Part shown: piece by piece, positions 2,995 to 63,861 of the stretch
Layout of the letters: every line of letters begins with the position of its first letter
Numbering within the stretch: the stretch's first letter is position 1
From: a virus
Strand: one strand, 5' to 3'
Length of the DNA: 64,000 bases
IMG/VR virus record: IMGVR_UViG_3300028864_000019
Coordinates: 47,870-111,869 of that record
The notes under the pieces: generated by a model
Seen by the model: the letters and a program-made list of their open reading frames with translations, nothing else
Databases searched by the model: none
What the model was told of the DNA's origin: nothing
Program-made: the position numbers and the translations under genes

Positions 2995-3419
2995 TTTCAG
3001 CTCTCCTCATTATTTATTATTATAATTTTAATTTATTTATATAAGCACAACATACAGTTATGTATCTATTTAAAATACCGTATGTTGTGTTAAAGGTCTT
3101 GTTTTTAATGAAATAACGCTTTTAAAAGAATTTAAATTTATTGTCATGTAAATCAAACCTAATTTCATAATTAATGCTCTTTGGTTCTACATGATTTTCT
3201 TCAGATAGCTCTATTATTGATTTTAAATTTTCAAACACTTCATTAACTACTTCTTTGTCAGTTTTATTATGTTCTTCTATTATTGTTTCTACTATATCTG
3301 ATATACATATAACTTTAGAAAAATCATTGTTGTTTATAATCTTGTATTGCTTCATTTTTAATCACTCCTTAATTATTAATTGATAATTATTTTCAATAAA
3401 ACTCTTGATTTATTGTCTT

Positions 3420-43193: not shown

Positions 43194-44669
43194 ATGAGCA
43201 AAAAGAATAAGGATAATGATATAATTTTAAGTTTTGTCGGTGGAAGTAGGGACGATATTTGTGGATCTGCTTTATTAATTAGCTATCCTATAGGAAATGA
43301 CAAACATAAATGCGTTTGTCTAGAATGTGGCATGATACAAGGAGAATCAAAACCAGAGATAGAATATTCAATGAATAAAAAAATGGTTGAAAATATTCCA
43401 GTAGGAGGTATTTCGGGAGTGTTTTTAATGCACTCCCACGTCTGAGTAGACCATATTGGGAACACACCTATATTTGGACAAGATATATTCAAAGGTGAAA
43501 TAATTACAACAGAAGAATGTTTAATGATATCTAAAGAATTATTAAAAGATAGTGTGTATTTACATGATTGTTTAATAAAAGGTTTAAAAGCAAAAGGGAA
43601 AAGACCTAAAAACTTATATACTGAATTAGATATGTATAAGATGTTAGAGAAGGTAAAAACAGTTGAAACACATCAAGTATATAAATTTGATGATTGGTTA
43701 AGTTATGAATTTTATAATTCTGGACATGTATTAGGTGGTACTCAATTGAAACTTACTTTTAGACTACCTAACAATAATATAAAATCCTTAGTTTACACAA
43801 GCGATTTGGGATCAGATTACAATTTAAAATATAAACCATTTGTAAAGAAAAGAGATATAATTCCTAAGGCTTCAATGTACGTTTTTGAGGCAACTTATTC
43901 AAACTCTGAAAAGTGCTTTGATAAAAATTTAGTAGAAAAAGAAAGAAATGAACTAAAAGAAACTTTAACTAAATATTTAAAAAGTGGACACCGAGTATTT
44001 TTTCCTTCCTTTTCTTTCGGGCGTACCCAAGAGTTACAATTTTTAATAAATTCGTTTTTTAAAGATGAAGAATGGTTTAATGAAATACCAGTAACAATTG
44101 ATGGAAGATTAACTAATTCTATATGTGATACTTATAGCAAGATATTAAAATATGATGAATTTGAGGACTGGGAGAGAATAAAAAACTGGAAGAATTTTCG
44201 TTATAATAAAGAATATAAAGGTACTTTGGGAATATTATCTAAAAGAGAATGTGGAATTTACATAAGTTCTAGTGGATTTGTTCAACCTAAAACACGTAGT
44301 TGTGACTATGTTAAAAATTTTATGGGAGTTACAGGAGATCTAATTTGTTTCGTAGGATATTACGGAGCTGAAGGTTCAATTTCTCATGAATTAGTTACTA
44401 GACCAATAGGCACTCCTATTAAAATTGATGGAAGTACATTAATAAAAAGTTGTGATGTTCTTACTCAGAAAACATTTTCGAGCCACATTCAACAAGAAGA
44501 AATTTTTAGCTACTGGAGTCAAATAAACACAAATAAGATTCTAATACACCATTGTACTGAAGAAGGAAAAATTGAAATGAAAGAAAAGGGAACTGAATAT
44601 CTACAAAGTAAAAATAAAACAACTAAAATTGTAGGAGTAAGTAAATTTGCTTCACAATTCATTTTATAA
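43194..44669 (+). CDS. MBL-fold beta-CASP nuclease interrupted by in-frame TGA at 43443
   Basis: Both track ORFs share one frame; HSHV*VDH, SGHVLG, YTSDLG, EATY, FSFGRTQE, FSSH, H motifs. Confidence 0.85.
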
Positions 44670-45698: not shown

Positions 45699-45788
45699 GG
45701 AGAGTTGGCAGAGTGTCCGAATGCACTGGTTTGCTAAATCAGCATACGTTTATTCGTATCGAGGGTTAGAATCCCTCACTCTCCTCCA
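45699..45788 (+). tRNA. tRNA-Ser (GCT), atypical
   Basis: GGAGAGT/ACTCTCC acceptor, CTGGT-TTGCTAA-ATCAG anticodon arm, long variable arm, GAGGG-TTAGAAT-CCCTC T arm, encoded CCA. Confidence 0.88.
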
Positions 45789-47628: not shown

Positions 47629-48225
47629 ATGGGAGAAGTATATCAACAACGGAATTTATTGCTAGAAGAAATCAAATTAGTAGATTACAAAGATAATAAT
47701 ACACTATATATTGATGATGAAATTACAACTGAATTTATAATAATGTTATCAAGACAATTAAAGAAACTTGCCACTAAACAACTATCATTGAGCAAGGAAG
47801 ATAGAACACCAATAAAATTAATCATAGCTTCTCCAGGAGGAAGTTTAGTTGATGGAATGCATTTTTGTGACCTAATGGAATATTACATTAATAAAGGGAT
47901 AGAAATTCATACATATTGTACAAGCTATGCTTATTCAATGGCATTCAAAATATTTATATGTGGATCTAAAAGATTTGTATATAAGAGAAGTGATTTAATG
48001 TGACACCAATGGAATAGATTTAGATACGGTACTGAGACATATCAAGATACTGTAAATGATAGAGAGCAATGCGATAGATGGTACAAGTTAATAGTTGATT
48101 TAATAACTGAGAAAACAGGTATAACTAAAGAACAATTTGATAGCTATACAAAGAGTAATAAAGACTTTTATATGGATGGTGCTACTGCTTTAAAATTAAA
48201 TGTTGCTGATGAAATAATTATATAA
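47629..48225 (+). CDS. ClpP-like serine protease interrupted by in-frame TGA at 48001
   Basis: IASPGGSL, AYSMA (Ser), SDLM*HQ (His), KDFYM (Asp), ALKLNVADEII; frame stays open to TAA at 48223-48225. Confidence 0.85.
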
Positions 48226-51468: not shown

Positions 51469-52830
51469 TTGATTATGGAAATAAGAAAATGTAAAAAATG
51501 TGGACAAGAAAAAGAATTAAACGAGGAAAATTTTTATAAAAACAAAAATGGAAGTTTTGAAAATACATGTAAAGCTTGTAGGAATAAAGCAAAAACAGAA
51601 CAAGAAATTAAATATAGAGAAAAGTTCTATGCTAAAGATGGATATAAAGTTTGCAAATGTTGTAATATTAAAAAAGAGGTATCAGAATTTGGATTATATG
51701 CTAAAGCTAAAGATGGATATTTGTCTAAGTGTTTAAATTGTTCTAATGAGAAAGATACATGGAGTCAAAGGGATAAAGATATTATTATAGCTAATTATAA
51801 TAAATTAATAATCAAAGAGATAATTCCATTGCTTAGCGTTAATCGTACTGAAAAATCTGTATTACATATGAGTAAAAAACTAGGATTATATAAAATAAAT
51901 AATGTAGTAGAAGATTATGACAAAATAAAATATAAAGACATTAAAGGCAAAAGATACAAATTATGCAAGTGCTGTAATGAATATTTACCATTAGAATTTT
52001 TATATTTTCCAAAAGATAATACTTGTAGTGATGGTTTTAGAAACGTATGCAAAAAATGTAAAGGTGAGAACTATGCAATATCTGATTCATACATATGGAA
52101 AGATGAAGAAGTAATAATTATTCAAAATAATTATTCAGATATGACCAATAATGAAATGAAGAATGAATTTTTCCCACATTTAACAATTAATCAAATTATG
52201 GATAAAGCTCATAGTTTAAATTTACATAAAAGTGATGAAAGTAAATTAAGAGCAACAAATGACGCACAAACTGAGGAATGGAGAAATAAAATAAGTGAGA
52301 CTCGACTTAAAAATGGAAAATCAAAAGGCGAAAATAATCCAATGTTTGGTTCTGCAAGATTTGGTAGTTTAAATCCTAATTATAAAGGTGGAATTAGTAA
52401 TATAGAAAATGAATTAAGAAGAAATATTAACCAATGGAAATTAGATAGTATGAAAGAATGCAATTTCAAATGTATTATTACAGGGGAAAGGTTTGATCAT
52501 ATTCATCACTTATATAGTTTTGATAATATAGTTAGAGATACTTTAGAAGAATTAAAATTACCTATATATGAAACTATAAGTAATTATACAGATATGGAAA
52601 TAAAACAAATTATATGTAAATGTACAGAAATTCATTACAGGTATCCATTAGGGAAATGTATGAAAGAAGAATATCATAAAATATTTCATCAAAATTATGG
52701 ATATGGAAGAAATACACATAGTCAGTTTGATGAGTTCTTAATTAGATTTTTTGAAGGAGCATTTGACGAACAGTTAGAAGAACAATATAGAAGTAATAAA
52801 ATATTAAAAAAATTAGAAGTTGCTAATTAA
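51469..52830 (+). CDS. HNH-type homing endonuclease with zinc fingers and NUMOD3-like motifs
   Basis: Repeated CxxC, NPMFG/NPNYKGG, CIITG...HIHH...HKIFHQNYG. Confidence 0.75.
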   Translation: MIMEIRKCKKCGQEKELNEENFYKNKNGSFENTCKACRNKAKTEQEIKYREKFYAKDGYKVCKCCNIKKEVSEFGLYAKAKDGYLSKCLNCSNEKDTWSQRDKDIIIANYNKLIIKEIIPLLSVNRTEKSVLHMSKKLGLYKINNVVEDYDKIKYKDIKGKRYKLCKCCNEYLPLEFLYFPKDNTCSDGFRNVCKKCKGENYAISDSYIWKDEEVIIIQNNYSDMTNNEMKNEFFPHLTINQIMDKAHSLNLHKSDESKLRATNDAQTEEWRNKISETRLKNGKSKGENNPMFGSARFGSLNPNYKGGISNIENELRRNINQWKLDSMKECNFKCIITGERFDHIHHLYSFDNIVRDTLEELKLPIYETISNYTDMEIKQIICKCTEIHYRYPLGKCMKEEYHKIFHQNYGYGRNTHSQFDEFLIRFFEGAFDEQLEEQYRSNKILKKLEVAN

Positions 52831-54442: not shown

Positions 54443-56337
54443 ATGGGTATCACAATTATAAATAAAGGTAATTTGACTCAAAAAAAGTTAGAAGGTTATT
54501 TAAAATACAATGAAATACTTGTATGGGGAAGAAGAAATCCTGTAAAGTTCGCAGAATTAGTGTTGGGACTTGAACTTATGGATTATCAAAAATATACATT
54601 TCAAGAATCATGGAGCAAACAATTTGCATTATGGTTGATGTCTCGTAATGGAGGCTGAGTAAATCAACTTTAAGTTCTCCATTTATAATGACAAAAATGA
54701 TGTTATTTCCAAACTTTCAAAGCTTTATACTTTCATTAACCGCAAGTCAAAGCCAAGATACCTTTCTTTGACAACTTAAAATGGAGTCAATAGCAAAAAA
54801 ACAAATAGAATCTTTTTGTGGATTAACAGATATATTTTTAGGAGAAGTTTCTGCAAGTGCTAACCATGATGGATTTGTTCACTCTCCTCAAGGATTTAGA
54901 TGTAAGCTATTTAACAACAGTCAAGTTACTACTGTTTCTGGGGAAGAAGATAATATTAGAGGGAAAAGATCAAATTTAAATTTGTATGATGAAAGTGGTT
55001 TCATAAGTGAAAACTATATTTCAGTTACAAAATCATTTTGTACACAGGATTCGTCGTTTAAGTTAGGTGGTGGTATAAACACCGAAACTATACCGATGAA
55101 TATTCCTAATCAATTATTGTTTTGTTCATCTGCTAGTAGTACGGATTCTGCATTTTATACATTATATAAAGAGTGGGCAAAGTTAATGTTTGCAGGAAGT
55201 AAAGACCATTTTGTAGCTGACTTAAATTGTGAGGTTATAATAGGAGCTACATTAAAAGGTAAAAAATTAAATATACCATTGTTATCACAATCTAAAGTTG
55301 ATGATGAAATAAGGTCAAACTCAGAGAAAGCAAATCGAGAATATTTTAATCGTTTTGATGCTGATGGTGGAAATAAACAACCTATAAAACGTGCAGTAAT
55401 TATGAAAAATTCATCAGTTAGAAAACCATTATTAATTAATGAAGGAAATATAAAAAGACACATTGCAATTTCATATGATCCAGCACATGATTATGATAAT
55501 TCAGCGACATCAGTAGGAGAATATATATATGATGAACAAGTTGGATGGAAATTAATAATTCAAAACTGTGTAAGTCTTGTGGATTTAGGGAAAAAGAAAA
55601 AAACTCCAATGAGAACGCCAGAACAAATTAAAGAGATAAAACAAATGCTAATAAATTATAACGGAAAAGGCAAGGCTGATTATGAGAATATAGATTGTTT
55701 ACTAGTTGATGCTGGTTCAGGAGGTGGTGGTCCGATAATCGCAGATTATTTTATGGACGACTGGGAAGATGAACAAGGAAATAAACATAGGGGATTAATT
55801 GATAAAGAAGCCTGTGCTGAACATGTAAATTCTTATCCGAATGCAGTAGGAAAATTAAAATTAGTATCACCTAAAAAATATAAAACAGAAATGTATGATG
55901 ATTTTGTAGAATTATTAAATTTAGGACTAATTGAATTTACAGATAATTATGATATGAAAGGGTACTTAAGTCTACCACAGGAAGGAAAAGAGATTGAAGA
56001 AATTGATGAGGATACGAATGAAAAGAAAAAGGTAAAATCAATAGATTATAAACAATACAATCTATCTTGGGACGAAGAATTGGCATTAAAGCAAATTGAT
56101 AACGCAAAAGAAGAATTAATTGCAATAAGAAGACAAGGTGATGATATAAATTATAAATATGAACTGCCTCCTGATAAAAAGAGTAAAATGCATGATGATA
56201 GAGCTTACACAATGGTAATGTTAGCTTGGCATTTAAAAAACCTTAGACGTGACGGAATAGTTAATAAGCAAGCACCACAAGTTGATTGGTCAACAGCACC
56301 AACATTTGTTTCATCAGTAAATTTCAATTCTATATAA
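54443..56337 (+). CDS. terminase large subunit interrupted by two UGA-containing inserts (54656-54660, 54769-54777)
   Basis: MDYQ adenine motif, SRNGG|KST split Walker A, IRGKRSN.NLYDESGF Walker B, YDPA and HDDRAY nuclease motifs; about 626 aa if both inserts are skipped. Confidence 0.88.
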
Positions 56338-56362: not shown

Positions 56363-58111
56363 TTGACAAAAAAACAATCTACAGAAATCCCAATCCCTCA
56401 ACTACAAAAGATAGATTTAACTATACCAGTTCTATCAGAAGGCGAAACAAAACAAGTGTCTAATATCGGTGGGAATTACATCTTATCAGATATAGAAACA
56501 TCTACTACTAAAGATTATTTTGATCCAAACTACATACAACAAGCTACATATGATGCACAAAGATTAAGTAATATTTATAGTACTGTATTAGATAAAAATA
56601 CATCATCTTATGTTACAACTATGGACGAATTATCCTCATTAGCACAGAACACTCAAACTAGTATAGATAAAATAAAGAAAATAAACGGAATAGTTAAATA
56701 TTACATAAACAAAGAAGATTTAATTGGTAGAGTGGTTGAAACTATAGAAAATAATATAAACATAAATTACAAAATTGATTATCCATCTCCTAGCAGTAAA
56801 AAAGGTACTAAACTAAAAAAAGAACAAAAAATGGAAGACGAATTAAAAGTAGTAATAGAAAAGTTTAATAAACAAATTAATATACCTAAGTTAATAGCCG
56901 ATAATGCAGTTATTACATATACAGAAGGTAATTTTATATTCTATTTAATGGGTGATAGTGAAAATGGTTATTCTATAGTAAATTATCCAATGGATATTAC
57001 TGAAATCACACCAATGAGAATTGATGACGACCCAGTAGTGTCTTTTAATGTTACTGAATTATCATCAAGGTTACAAGAGAGTAGAACAAAATATGGAAGA
57101 TTAAAAACAAATAAACTTATTGATATTGAAAAAACAATAGAAGACGAAGTTAAAAAATGTTATCCTACTGAAATATATGACGCTTATAAAGGGAAAGACC
57201 AATATGCTTTATTAAATCCACAAAAAATAGGATTAAATAGGATAAATAATTTAAAAGGGCTATATGGATTAACACCTATATTTAAAGCACTACAACCTCA
57301 ATTAATGTTGGAAACGGTTGATAAAAGTGACCAAAAAGTATTAATTCAAAAGACTAAAAAGATTTATTTGCAATTAACTGAAAAAGAATTAATGGAAAAG
57401 CCAAATGCCATTAATATGATAGGTCATGCACATGTGAGTTTACTTGAAGCTATGTCAAAAGATACTATTATATATACTGCTGACCCACAAGTACAAGATT
57501 TAAAATTGATTGAACCTAAAACTGAGTTGACTGATGAAAAAACTAAATCAGGTTATAAGTTAAGAATATTAGAAGCATTAGGAATATCATTTATTAGTTC
57601 AGAAGGTTCTAAATCTATAACAACTACTAAAATAAACTATGACGAACTATTAAAAATGGTTAATAGAATAACTAAGAGTTTAGAACCAATCCTTAATAAA
57701 TACTATCAGTTGGTATGTGAAGAAAATGGTTTTCCTTTGGAATATTCACCTACTATAACTATTGAATCTACTAAGTTGCTGGATTTAGAAACATTATTAA
57801 GGTTAGTAGAAACTATGTACTCAAAAATTGGATTAAGCTACGATACTATTTTGACAATGCTAGGATTAAATCCTGAAATTGAAATTAATAAACGTGTAAA
57901 AGAAAATAAAGTAACAATAGATGGCGTAGAAATGACTACTGATGATATTATGAGTCCTCATATAACATCTTTCACAACATCGGGAAAAGACGGAGACACG
58001 GTAACACATAATAATCTAGATTCTAATACCAATAAGAATAATAGTAAAAAAAATGAAAATATAGATAAGCAAGAATCAGATCAATCACGAAAAGAAGCAT
58101 TAAAAGTATGA
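56363..58111 (+). CDS. portal protein
   Basis: 582 aa directly after terminase; YGLTPIFKAL portal-like motif. Confidence 0.75.
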   Translation: MTKKQSTEIPIPQLQKIDLTIPVLSEGETKQVSNIGGNYILSDIETSTTKDYFDPNYIQQATYDAQRLSNIYSTVLDKNTSSYVTTMDELSSLAQNTQTSIDKIKKINGIVKYYINKEDLIGRVVETIENNININYKIDYPSPSSKKGTKLKKEQKMEDELKVVIEKFNKQINIPKLIADNAVITYTEGNFIFYLMGDSENGYSIVNYPMDITEITPMRIDDDPVVSFNVTELSSRLQESRTKYGRLKTNKLIDIEKTIEDEVKKCYPTEIYDAYKGKDQYALLNPQKIGLNRINNLKGLYGLTPIFKALQPQLMLETVDKSDQKVLIQKTKKIYLQLTEKELMEKPNAINMIGHAHVSLLEAMSKDTIIYTADPQVQDLKLIEPKTELTDEKTKSGYKLRILEALGISFISSEGSKSITTTKINYDELLKMVNRITKSLEPILNKYYQLVCEENGFPLEYSPTITIESTKLLDLETLLRLVETMYSKIGLSYDTILTMLGLNPEIEINKRVKENKVTIDGVEMTTDDIMSPHITSFTTSGKDGDTVTHNNLDSNTNKNNSKKNENIDKQESDQSRKEALKV

Positions 58112-62003: not shown

Positions 62004-62057
62004 TAAGGGAGATATATAAATCTTCCTTTAATGAATTATAGAAAGGAATGATTAATA

Positions 62058-62528
62058 TTGACGCCTTATTCAGAAGTAATAGATAGATTTGAACGTAAAA
62101 TAAAAGAATACAAAGATTTCTTTTGTTATGAAAATGTTACAGAAGAAGAATTTATAGAAATTACAAATAGAAGAGAAATGGGTTTATTAGAAGATGCAGT
62201 AAGTGACTTGCAATTAGTTGTTTCCATCTCTCAAAATGTAGATTTTTTAGATAAAAATGATGATTTAGAAACATTTAATTTTGAGTTAGTTCCATTGGAA
62301 AAGGATTTAATTAGTGATTGTATGGTTATTAAAATGTTTGATGAAGGAATAGTCAGGTTGAAAAAATATCAAGAATACTTTGGAGATGATATTAAAATGC
62401 CCAATTCTAATACAGAAAGGACTACCTATTTAAAAGTTGCTGAATATAGACAAATACAATTTGATAAAAAAGTTGTTAGCTATAACAGTAAGAATAGAAA
62501 AACTGGTGGTCATTTATTGGCATATTGA
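62058..62528 (+). CDS. putative head-tail adaptor
   Basis: MTPYSEVIDRF start, helical, position in module. Confidence 0.5.
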   Translation: MTPYSEVIDRFERKIKEYKDFFCYENVTEEEFIEITNRREMGLLEDAVSDLQLVVSISQNVDFLDKNDDLETFNFELVPLEKDLISDCMVIKMFDEGIVRLKKYQEYFGDDIKMPNSNTERTTYLKVAEYRQIQFDKKVVSYNSKNRKTGGHLLAY

Positions 62529-62529
62529 T

Positions 62530-63861
62530 ATGAATAAAGAAGATTTAAAATATTATAGAACTATAAACAAAGTTTCTAATAATCAAACAAGCAAAGAATC
62601 ACTCATTTCTGGAATTACACAAGACTATAATAACGCTAGAGAACATGCAATATATAGATTTGATGTATTAATAAATTCAATCGATGCAAAAGATGTATTT
62701 ATAAATAACTTAGAAGCTCCAATCAAAGGAGTAATTGACATATCAAGAAAACAAACTGCTGATACTGAAATGGAAGAAAAATTGCAAGTATATCCTAATC
62801 AGATTAAACGTGGAGACTATGTTAAATTCAAAGTCAATGAAACTGATACACTAAGAACTTATCTTATTAAATCCAAGATAGATAAAAAACATGGATATGA
62901 TGAAGGTATCTTTGAAGAGTGTAATTATGATTTGAAATTCATAGTTGATAACACTTTATATACTATTCCCACAATTGTGACGAATAATACGAAATATACA
63001 TTGGGAATAAAAAGTATTGGTGGAAGTTCAATAATTGAGGGAGATGGAATGTTTGGATTAGTACTCTCAAATAATGATATATCAAAACTGATAAAAATAG
63101 ATCAAAGATTCATAGTAAATGGTCAGGCTTGGAAAGCAACACAAACGGATAGGGTTACTACTAAAGGCGTATTAGCTGTATTACTTGGAGAAACAGCCAT
63201 AAATTATGAAATAGATGATATGGTTTTAGGTATAGCGGACTATAAAACTGTAATTCCACATACATATACATATAATGTCCCCACTACATTTGAAGTAACT
63301 AAGGGAACATCGGCAAATTTAGTATATTCTATTAAAGATGAATTAGGTTCTGAGATTGATTATAGTGGAGTTATGGTTACAAGTAATAGTCCCTTAGCAA
63401 CTATTACTAATACAAATGGAGTTATTTCAATAAGTGGAGTAAATATAGGTTTAGGTAGTATGAAACTACAAGTTACATTAGATAGAGTTTTAAAAGAATT
63501 TGATATTGCATTTGAAGTTAAAACAGATGTAATTGTTCCTGTAATATCATATTCGTGTGAATGGTCAACAGGAAAAGTATCTAATGGCGTTAGCTTGAAA
63601 ACTTATATGTCAAGTACTGCAAATTGCAAAGAAACCATTAATGGTGTCGCTGATTCAACATTGATAGTAAATTATTCATTAGATTCTATTGGAAGTTCTT
63701 TAGTAGCGACAGGGTCAGTAACAATCACTAGAAAATCTAATGTTGACTTCTTAGTTAAAAATGTTAGTGTAAGCACATCAAAAAGTTTCATAATAACATT
63801 TACTAATAGTGTAGATAATTCAATAATTTCTACTCAAACTGTTAGTCTTAGTGGCATGTAA
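62530..63861 (+). CDS. head-closure / neck protein with Ig-like C-terminal domains
   Basis: IKRGDYV, CNYDLKF motifs; beta-rich S/T/V C-terminus; likely start ATG 62530. Confidence 0.55.
   Translation: MNKEDLKYYRTINKVSNNQTSKESLISGITQDYNNAREHAIYRFDVLINSIDAKDVFINNLEAPIKGVIDISRKQTADTEMEEKLQVYPNQIKRGDYVKFKVNETDTLRTYLIKSKIDKKHGYDEGIFEECNYDLKFIVDNTLYTIPTIVTNNTKYTLGIKSIGGSSIIEGDGMFGLVLSNNDISKLIKIDQRFIVNGQAWKATQTDRVTTKGVLAVLLGETAINYEIDDMVLGIADYKTVIPHTYTYNVPTTFEVTKGTSANLVYSIKDELGSEIDYSGVMVTSNSPLATITNTNGVISISGVNIGLGSMKLQVTLDRVLKEFDIAFEVKTDVIVPVISYSCEWSTGKVSNGVSLKTYMSSTANCKETINGVADSTLIVNYSLDSIGSSLVATGSVTITRKSNVDFLVKNVSVSTSKSFIITFTNSVDNSIISTQTVSLSGM

Follow-up and report, generated by a model that had tools for sequence, protein, structure and literature searches.

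A review from 2016 stated that no natural in-frame stop-hop was known, and that shorter cases resembling gene 60 of phage T4 had long been expected (PMC5009743). Synthetic stop-hops had been obtained in reporters, hops of +5 and +6 included (Weiss 1987, as cited in that review). For T4 gene 60, it has been found that the gap protects against nicking by MobA (10.1101/2022.08.31.505936). The closest published parallel to the case described here is the terminase gene of the Streptomyces phage phiHau3, which contains two UUA-led inserts of 10 nucleotides (nt) and for which there is partial mass-spectrometry support in E. coli (PMC10732093); candidate terminase bypassing has been described both for this phage and for two prophages (Smith et al. 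2013; PMC10732093). On stop-led hops in the terminases of Firmicutes phages, our literature search found nothing. Here, we analyse a large terminase gene (terL, protein TerL) in the virus record IMGVR_UViG_3300028864_000019 of IMG/VR, in which an insert of 5 nt, starting with a UGA stop codon, splits the phosphate-binding loop (P-loop, or Walker A motif). We consider a programmed +5 translational hop over this UGA to be the best reading of the insert and, given the comparison with related genes, a rather probable one.

The window, that is, the whole stretch of 64,000 nt that was analysed, is the 3' 64 kb (positions 47,870 to 111,869) of a record of 111,869 nt with a completeness of 54% (CheckV) and a GC (guanine plus cytosine) content of 26%. 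The terminase gene, its elements described below and the interrupted nuclease gene lie on the plus strand. The frame that starts with the ATG at 54443 encodes 71 residues, ends with LWLMSRNGG and stops at the TGA at 54656-54658; positions 54638-54673 read ATG TCT CGT AAT GGA GGC TGA GTA AAT CAA CTT TAA. Another frame is open from 54649 to 56337, save one TGA at 54769. In uninterrupted homologues the P-loop is LWLMSRNGGKSTLSS (P0004, 88% identity) and LWLMSRNAGKSTLSS (P0005, 81%, full length), and the consensus in gap-free homologues at 81-88% identity is SRN[GA]GKST. Since the P-loop of P0004 and P0005 is gap-free, exactly 5 nt are extra in the window, between G71 and K72. On this comparison we regard the insert TGAGT (54656-54660), which is absent from the uninterrupted homologues, as a real and confirmed observation. 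It consists of the UGA (54656-54658) and the rest of the putative landing triplet AGU (54658-54660), and it follows directly after GGC (Gly71, 54653-54655), the last homologue-aligned codon before the stop and the proposed take-off codon.

An initial annotation of this DNA had stated that dropping the 5 nt gives a canonical P-loop and that a change of frame is obligatory. Both statements hold: the result of the deletion is the sequence of the closest homologues, and if the UGA is decoded as a sense codon (translation tables 4 or 25, as Trp or Gly) or simply read through, the frame stays wrong and runs into a TAA after four sense codons. An alternative genetic code is also opposed by the use of TGA as the ordinary stop of real genes (such as that of the portal protein at 58109 and a gene ending at 62526), by the presence of only four in-gene TGAs in the whole 111.9-kb record (the two terminase sites, a beta-CASP nuclease gene and a ClpP-like gene), and by the lack of a suppressor or otherwise unusual tRNA in the record, the sole tRNA of which is a normal tRNA-Ser(GCU) at 45699-45788 with a 7-nt anticodon loop. 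A +1 slip of the prfB type was rejected because the +1 frame is closed, the downstream frame being +2 (or -1) relative to the start frame; an intein or a self-splicing intron, because the insert has just 5 nt; and transcriptional slippage in the AAA run, because by general knowledge a run of three A is too short for it. The GK pair is regained by the 5-nt skip only, and not by UGA as sense, +1, -1 or +2.

Next, we considered the identity of the gene. Searches of Pfam and PHROGs with the terminase protein gave no match, but over 2,000 homologues exist, among which some carry the name terminase. The AlphaFold model of P0005 (full length, 81% identical; mean predicted local distance difference test score 78.6) matched the large terminases of HK97, T4 (gp17), D6E and Sf6 in a fold search, with probability 1.00 and E-values from 1e-13 to 1e-10. 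The gene is thus, judging from the model, a large terminase with a two-domain fold of an ASCE ATPase and an RNase H-like nuclease, as had been claimed initially. The claim that the insert splits the Walker A motif agrees with the model as well, in which a strand (61-66) is followed by a loop and a helix that starts at K72. The pair G71-K72 is adjacent and invariant both in the 42 homologues that were aligned and in 61 intact alleles; in the window gene, the Walker A G-K-[ST] exists only with TGAGT skipped. A search for a second terminase in the 111.9-kb record, which is itself incomplete, gave no match (tblastn with nine homologues and two Pfam terminase ATPase families). The GenBank phage collection holds no close relative of this terminase (identity at most 27%), and one intact copy lies on a Bacillus velezensis plasmid.

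The coding sequence consists of three segments. Codons 1-71 (54443-54655, ending in LWLMSRNGG) align with residues 1-71 of the full-length P0005; codons 72-107 (54661-54768, KSTLSS...SQDTFL by translation) begin with the resume codon AAA at 54661-54663; and codons 108-626 (54778-56337) run from KMESIAKK to the stop. In comparison with the relative L003, the ratio of nonsynonymous to synonymous substitution rates (dN/dS) is 0.08, 0.07 and 0.10, respectively, and the terminase segments that flank the inserts are under purifying selection.

The second insert lies between L107 and K108, where the sequence reads CTT[TGACAACTT]AAA. A candidate take-off codon CTT is followed here by the 9-nt insert TGA CAA CTT (54769-54777; whole site 54766-54777), and the last CTT would be the landing codon. 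The homologues are gap-free at this site and read SQDTF[LM]KMESIAKK. Furthermore, the truncated gene calls P0003, P0006 and P0008 start with MESIAKK, MTKGKST and MEAIAKK, which suggests, from the position of these starts, that other genes are interrupted at the same two sites.

We wanted to know how such interruptions are distributed among related terminases. A set of 153 terL loci from IMG/VR and metagenomes was reduced to 111 distinct genes, and six further loci were added later from genomes. Short interruptions of 2-17 nt, at 13 alignment positions, occur in 29 of the 111 genes (about a quarter), and the isolate Clostridium cuniculi strain 1 has three of them in the terL gene of its genome (contig NZ_SMUS01000011.1). 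In total we tabulated 34 interrupted alleles, which represent 20 insert lineages at these 13 positions. For example, we find CAG[TGA CAA]AAG, CTG[TGAG CTA]GGA, GAA[T GAG]TTA, GTG[TA]ATG, CTT[TGATGAAAG CTT]TCT and CGC[TAGGTTAACTAG CGT]AGA, where the brackets enclose the insert. In 18 of the 20 lineages, the insert opens with an in-frame stop codon (P 2e-17). This stop is TGA in 13 of the 18 (P 4e-5), and the base after the TGA is C or G in 12 of the 13 (P 1e-5); UGA-C and UGA-G are weak termination contexts in E. coli. The last triplet of the insert matches the preceding codon at positions 1 and 2 in 14 of the 20 lineages (P 2e-15), and in most of these 14 the two codons are synonymous rather than identical. 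Finally, none of the 13 positions lies beyond residue 187 of 627 (P 1e-7).

Several gaps contain two stops (TGA TGA, or TAG..TAG), so that readthrough is excluded for them. At the FL|G and E|L/F sites homologous inserts have been kept between phages that are about 55% identical; there the bases of the gap vary, and the take-off and landing codons stay synonymous, within the same codon box. As stops, wobble-level matches and termination context mean something only to a translating ribosome, we place the event at translation, and it is these comparative data from the relatives that make a translational hop the best reading of the window insert. Skips of 5 nt recur as well, in four other lineages; among them, L102 and L073 represent independent +5 lineages, and a third 5-nt case, in L005, is ambiguous.

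Three further alleles are interrupted at the same G|K spot of the P-loop. Next to the window allele, GGC[TGAGT]AAA (+5), we find GGT[TGACA GGA]AAG in L073 (+8), GGC[TGACATAATAC GGT]AAA in L005 (+14) and GGA[TGACTTAATGTTAA GGA]AAA in L022 (+17). All four inserts start with TGA, and the landing triplet of the three longer ones is a Gly codon. From this alignment, the window allele looks like a deletion derivative of the longer alleles, its own landing triplet now being AGU. A pattern scan with CGTAATGGAGGNTGA gave mostly chance hits, the sole TerL among them being L240, which has the layout of L005.

The four interrupted P-loop alleles share two further elements. The Shine-Dalgarno-like GGAGG (54650-54654 in the window) is present in 4/4 interrupted alleles, in each of which it ends inside the take-off codon, compared with 5/61 intact ones and 2/8 intact ones within the same clades. 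The other is a predicted mRNA hairpin (54647-54683 in the window) that encloses the take-off codon, the UGA, the landing triplet and the resume codon. The initial annotation had proposed a hairpin across the site, and it is indeed the minimum-free-energy fold, with a fold z-score of -1.3 on 101 nt and -2.5 on 54 nt. The z-scores in the three sister alleles are -3.2, -4.0 and -2.4, and none of 54 intact alleles falls under -2.3. The inner stem differs from allele to allele; RNAalifold on the four alleles finds a conserved outer stem only, because the inner stems are allele-specific and cannot be aligned. GGAGG and the hairpin probably raise the efficiency of the hop at the P-loop site, a stimulatory role that we infer from their occurrence in these alleles. 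At the other hop sites no Shine-Dalgarno-like element or hairpin was seen.

The proposed mechanism would be as follows. With peptidyl-tRNA-Gly on GGC (54653-54655), the UGA would enter the A site, its context (UGA-G) being one of weak termination. A fraction of the ribosomes would escape termination; the tRNA in the P site would unpair, the mRNA would slide by 5 nt, and the tRNA would pair again, through positions 2 and 3, with AGU (54658-54660). Decoding would restart at AAA and yield the canonical P-loop SRNGGKST, with the predicted junction peptide ...LMSRNGGKSTLSSPF.... Full-length TerL would need a second hop 36 codons later, from CUU over UGA CAA to CUU (+9). Hopping of tRNAs in E. coli was reportedly described by O'Connor in 1989. 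We observe the insert, its relation to the homologues, the pattern across the family with its statistics, and purifying selection on the flanking segments; that a hop takes place, how efficient it is and what the phage gains from it is what we infer.

A third interruption of this kind is found in the gene of a beta-CASP/metallo-beta-lactamase nuclease (43194-44669). The insert TGAGTA (43443-43448) falls within the HxHxDH motif, GTC[TGAGTA]GAC, and the gene would need a +6 hop from Val to Val. The HxH-xDH motif is gap-free in all of the 20 full-length homologues that align through it, and the independent contig L275 (91% DNA identity) has an identical insert. The dN/dS of the nuclease is 0.09 upstream and 0.04 downstream of the insert (dS 0.59 downstream), and the low downstream value means that the part after the UGA is translated in that frame. 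We also note a perfect 7-bp inverted repeat, GGGAGTG...CACTCCC, at 43404-43436; its end lies 3 nt upstream of the nuclease take-off codon, and the repeat is identical in L275.

The fourth in-gene TGA is of a different type. It lies in the gene of a ClpP-like protease (47629-48225; Pfam CLP_protease, E 1e-19), where a TGA at 48001-48003 is in frame and no bases are added; it replaces a codon that specifies the Ile of MIHQP in solved ClpPs and Cys in the close relative L283. This gene requires readthrough, or else the TGA is a nonsense mutation or an error; it is not a hop site. The sole candidate for a frameshift break in the 111.9-kb record, between the reading frames at 62052-62528 and 62434-63861, was rejected as ordinary TGA/ATG coupling.

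Several points weigh against a hop at the P-loop site. It has been deduced from sequence comparisons, and the record is an incomplete metagenomic assembly. The landing of GGC on AGU matches at two of three positions, which is weaker than in the 14 of 20 lineages that match at positions 1 and 2; the initial annotation had noted this pairing at positions 2 and 3 only, and rightly so. Partial landing matches occur also in L102 (CUU to AUU), L073 (ACG to GCU) and the +4 group CGN-UAG-Y, and they are partial because the landing triplet shares its first base with the stop codon. Two exact-allele patterns found the 5-nt allele in no other contig of the collections searched, so that the retention of this particular allele by selection is presumed, and clean terminase genes exist in relatives at 88% identity. 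The dN/dS values against L003 (0.07-0.10) would miss a recent inactivation, and the nonsense substitution in the ClpP-like gene hints at decay or at a sequence error. Two hops in series would give a low yield unless each is efficient, and known unassisted stop-hops are about 1% efficient. As to the statistics of the relatives, the lineages were taken as independent and the boundaries of the inserts were drawn by hand.

Some of these points would be expected if the window carried a dead or dying allele, that is, a recent inactivating insert in a defective prophage or in a non-viable variant that the metagenomic assembly has picked up, with no full-length TerL being made. The uniqueness of the exact allele, the degenerate landing triplet in an insert that seems to derive by deletion from longer TGAC...GGN inserts, the ClpP-like nonsense substitution (Cys in L283), the 54% completeness and the clean alleles at 88% identity all fit such decay. 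We nevertheless think it unlikely, for all four interruptions in 111.9 kb are TGA, compared with about a quarter of random stops expected at this composition, and G or C follows each of the four TGAs; no other gene of the record is broken, and take-off and landing codons match at two of its three inserts. Moreover, the nuclease insert is conserved under strong purifying selection, skips of 5 nt recur in relatives, and the hairpin and GGAGG are common to the other P-loop alleles. An error of sequencing or assembly would also account for the insert, either because there is none in truth or because one A is missing and the insert is an in-frame TGAGTA of 6 nt, the alternative offered by the initial annotation. 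The assembly is metagenomic and the insert adjoins an AAA run, but random errors would not create a TGA-led insert of the same design as in 13 other lineages, nor a matching hairpin. The additional A is neither needed nor supported: +5 skips recur elsewhere, and with it a +6 hop would still be required, the pairing of which (GGC to GTA, GUA in the mRNA) is worse. As there is no ambiguity in the other two inserts of the contig, and an independent assembly has one of these two as well, we give an error little credence.

A simple +2 (or -1) frameshift at GGC UGA, with AGU read as Ser, would lead to SRNGG-S-KST (or SRNGG-LS-KST). It requires no long slide, since AGU stands in the +2 frame directly after UG; the phage tRNA-Ser(GCU) could decode it, and the WGR|K site of relatives (CGN UAG Y) can likewise be read as a +1 shift with a Ser inserted. 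Such a shift, however, puts one or two residues between G71 and K72, which are adjacent and invariant in the 42 homologues and in the 61 intact alleles, and an extra residue between the G and the K of Walker A would break the phosphate-binding loop; the three sister alleles land on Gly codons and restore GGK exactly. We therefore regard this frameshift as improbable. Finally, the gap could be removed before translation, by RNA editing, by splicing or through heterogeneity of the DNA. Nothing speaks directly for this; the terminase genes of relatives are rich in inteins and in intron-like inserts of 250 nt, but we know of no mechanism that excises 2-17 nt, there are no Rfam matches, and the stop-led inserts, the weak termination contexts and the synonymous end codons would be left without a reason, which makes it very improbable indeed.

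The programmed hop thus remains our preferred reading, and the question is why such gaps should persist. In seven homologous proteins (P0018, P0042, P0045, P0068, P0075, P0079 and P0089) LAGLIDADG inteins lie between GK and ST, 3 nt from the window insert; these inteins start with Ala (class 3-like). At the gene level, intein-sized inserts at GK|ST occur in 7 of the 111 genes (loci L110, L114, L127, L128, L138, L141 and L150), the one in L127 being a mini version of 411 nt. We also observed inserts of about 250 nt at the RGK|RS site of terL (L008, 3550-3797; L009, 2999-3261; L141, 1653-1900). They are conserved between relatives, have hairpins with compensatory changes and look like small group I-type introns, and they match no Rfam family at threshold; a search of Rfam with the window and the large inserts of the relatives gave the tRNA as the sole match. 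Together, the inteins and the intron-like inserts in relatives mark the terminase gene as a hotspot of homing elements. By analogy with T4 gene 60 and MobA, a gap in the centre of a homing site would plausibly block cleavage by the endonuclease, so that gaps persist; a role of the gaps in throttling the output of terminase is possible.

An open reading frame of 453 residues at 51469-52830, 1.6 kb upstream of terL, encodes repeated Cys-rich modules. Its PHROG matches are endonuclease VII (E 1e-13) and HNH endonuclease (E 1e-9), and it has no Pfam match at threshold. It could possibly be a free-standing homing endonuclease, and nothing ties it to the P-loop site.

Three other peculiarities of the related terL genes deserve mention. 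The sequence CGA A CGA (tandem CGAA), which contains no stop, occurs at two unrelated positions (L011-L017, about 3091-3097; L134 and L135, about 603-609), the L011 type in seven metagenomes; with the rare ACG as the A-site codon, it may reflect a +4 hop at a hungry codon, or else a duplication that simply shifts the frame. In L002 (3133-3175) the insert GAA[TGAG]TTA is accompanied by a 4-nt deletion about 30 nt downstream, so that the original frame is regained with 13 codons out of register; this double change could stem from an error of assembly or from recoding at a second place. In L131 and L132, prophages of isolate genomes, an in-frame TAA at about 3193 takes the place of the conserved Tyr of DDRAY, probably as a nonsense mutation in a defective prophage.

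Extending the reading to the whole group, we tentatively suggest that a clade of large Firmicutes phages and phage-plasmids, with Clostridium, Paenibacillus and Bacillus hosts, might routinely decode essential genes through efficient stop-codon hops of 2-17 nt, at at least 13 positions of terL and in at least one nuclease gene, and that the gaps might have evolved as a 'vaccination' of conserved motifs against inteins and homing endonucleases. We hold this wider proposal to be possible rather than probable. If it is true, hopping at UGA-C and UGA-G would have to be far more efficient by nature in these hosts than in E. coli, or the phages would encode a factor that promotes it. The interest of the window insert comes mainly from the family-wide series of sites that it opens up. 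If the gaps are hopped, this phage family holds dozens of natural, evolutionarily tested hop sites, and a series from +2 to +17, with perfect and imperfect landings and with and without hairpins, could give the rules for take-off and landing. Such hopping would also provide a second system, independent of the first, in which bypassing is linked to the arms race against inteins and homing endonucleases. In addition, gene callers split or truncate such terminases (as in P0003, P0006 and P0008), which distorts annotation, marker-gene phylogenies and estimates of completeness.

How does the window compare with the known systems? As in the synthetic stop-hops, the peptidyl-tRNA would leave a codon beside a stop and pair again a few nucleotides downstream, and CTT TGA CAA CTT and GTC TGA GTA of the window are matched codons around a stop. 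The synthetic hops, however, were of low efficiency and made in reporter constructs, whereas the window cases would be natural, conserved and located in essential genes. The +1 frameshift of prfB (RF2) shares with the window a shifty UGA in a weak context and a Shine-Dalgarno-like element just upstream, and the second site of the window even reads CUU UGA C, as in prfB. There, on the other hand, the shift is by +1 onto an overlapping codon and is autoregulated by RF2, while here a +1 shift hits stops and only +5 or +9 restores the protein.

In T4 gene 60, too, the take-off codon specifies Gly and stands right before a stop, the take-off site lies in a hairpin, and two frames yield one polypeptide (which for the window is a prediction); the gap likewise falls in a conserved site that is targeted by a homing endonuclease, a role that for the terminase is suggested by the inteins of the relatives. 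The gap of gene 60 differs in its length of 50 nt and its perfectly matched GGA/GGA codons, compared with 5 nt and an imperfect match here. Gene 60 requires a nascent-peptide signal; unlike the window terminase, it is a topoisomerase gene and belongs to a defined mobile cassette (MobA).

The terminase of phiHau3 comes closest. In both phages, the essential terL is broken by two short inserts that disrupt the frame and whose flanks are contiguous in homologues, each insert is led by an A-site codon that is slow to decode, and an internal Shine-Dalgarno-like sequence and local hairpins have been proposed as stimulators. Reading from the quoted peptide, we would place the first junction of phiHau3 (GWG|KD) at the G|K spot of the P-loop as well. 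In phiHau3, with its high-GC host, a rare sense codon (UUA) acts as the trigger, and in the window it would be a UGA stop in a phage of 26% GC; the inserts are 10 nt long there, and 5 nt with an imperfect landing here. A regulatory link to host development, as for phiHau3, is not indicated for the window phage, and the two terminase families are unrelated. Finally, the relatives of the window phage carry far more sites (13 positions) and a wider range of insert lengths (2-17 nt) than phiHau3 does.

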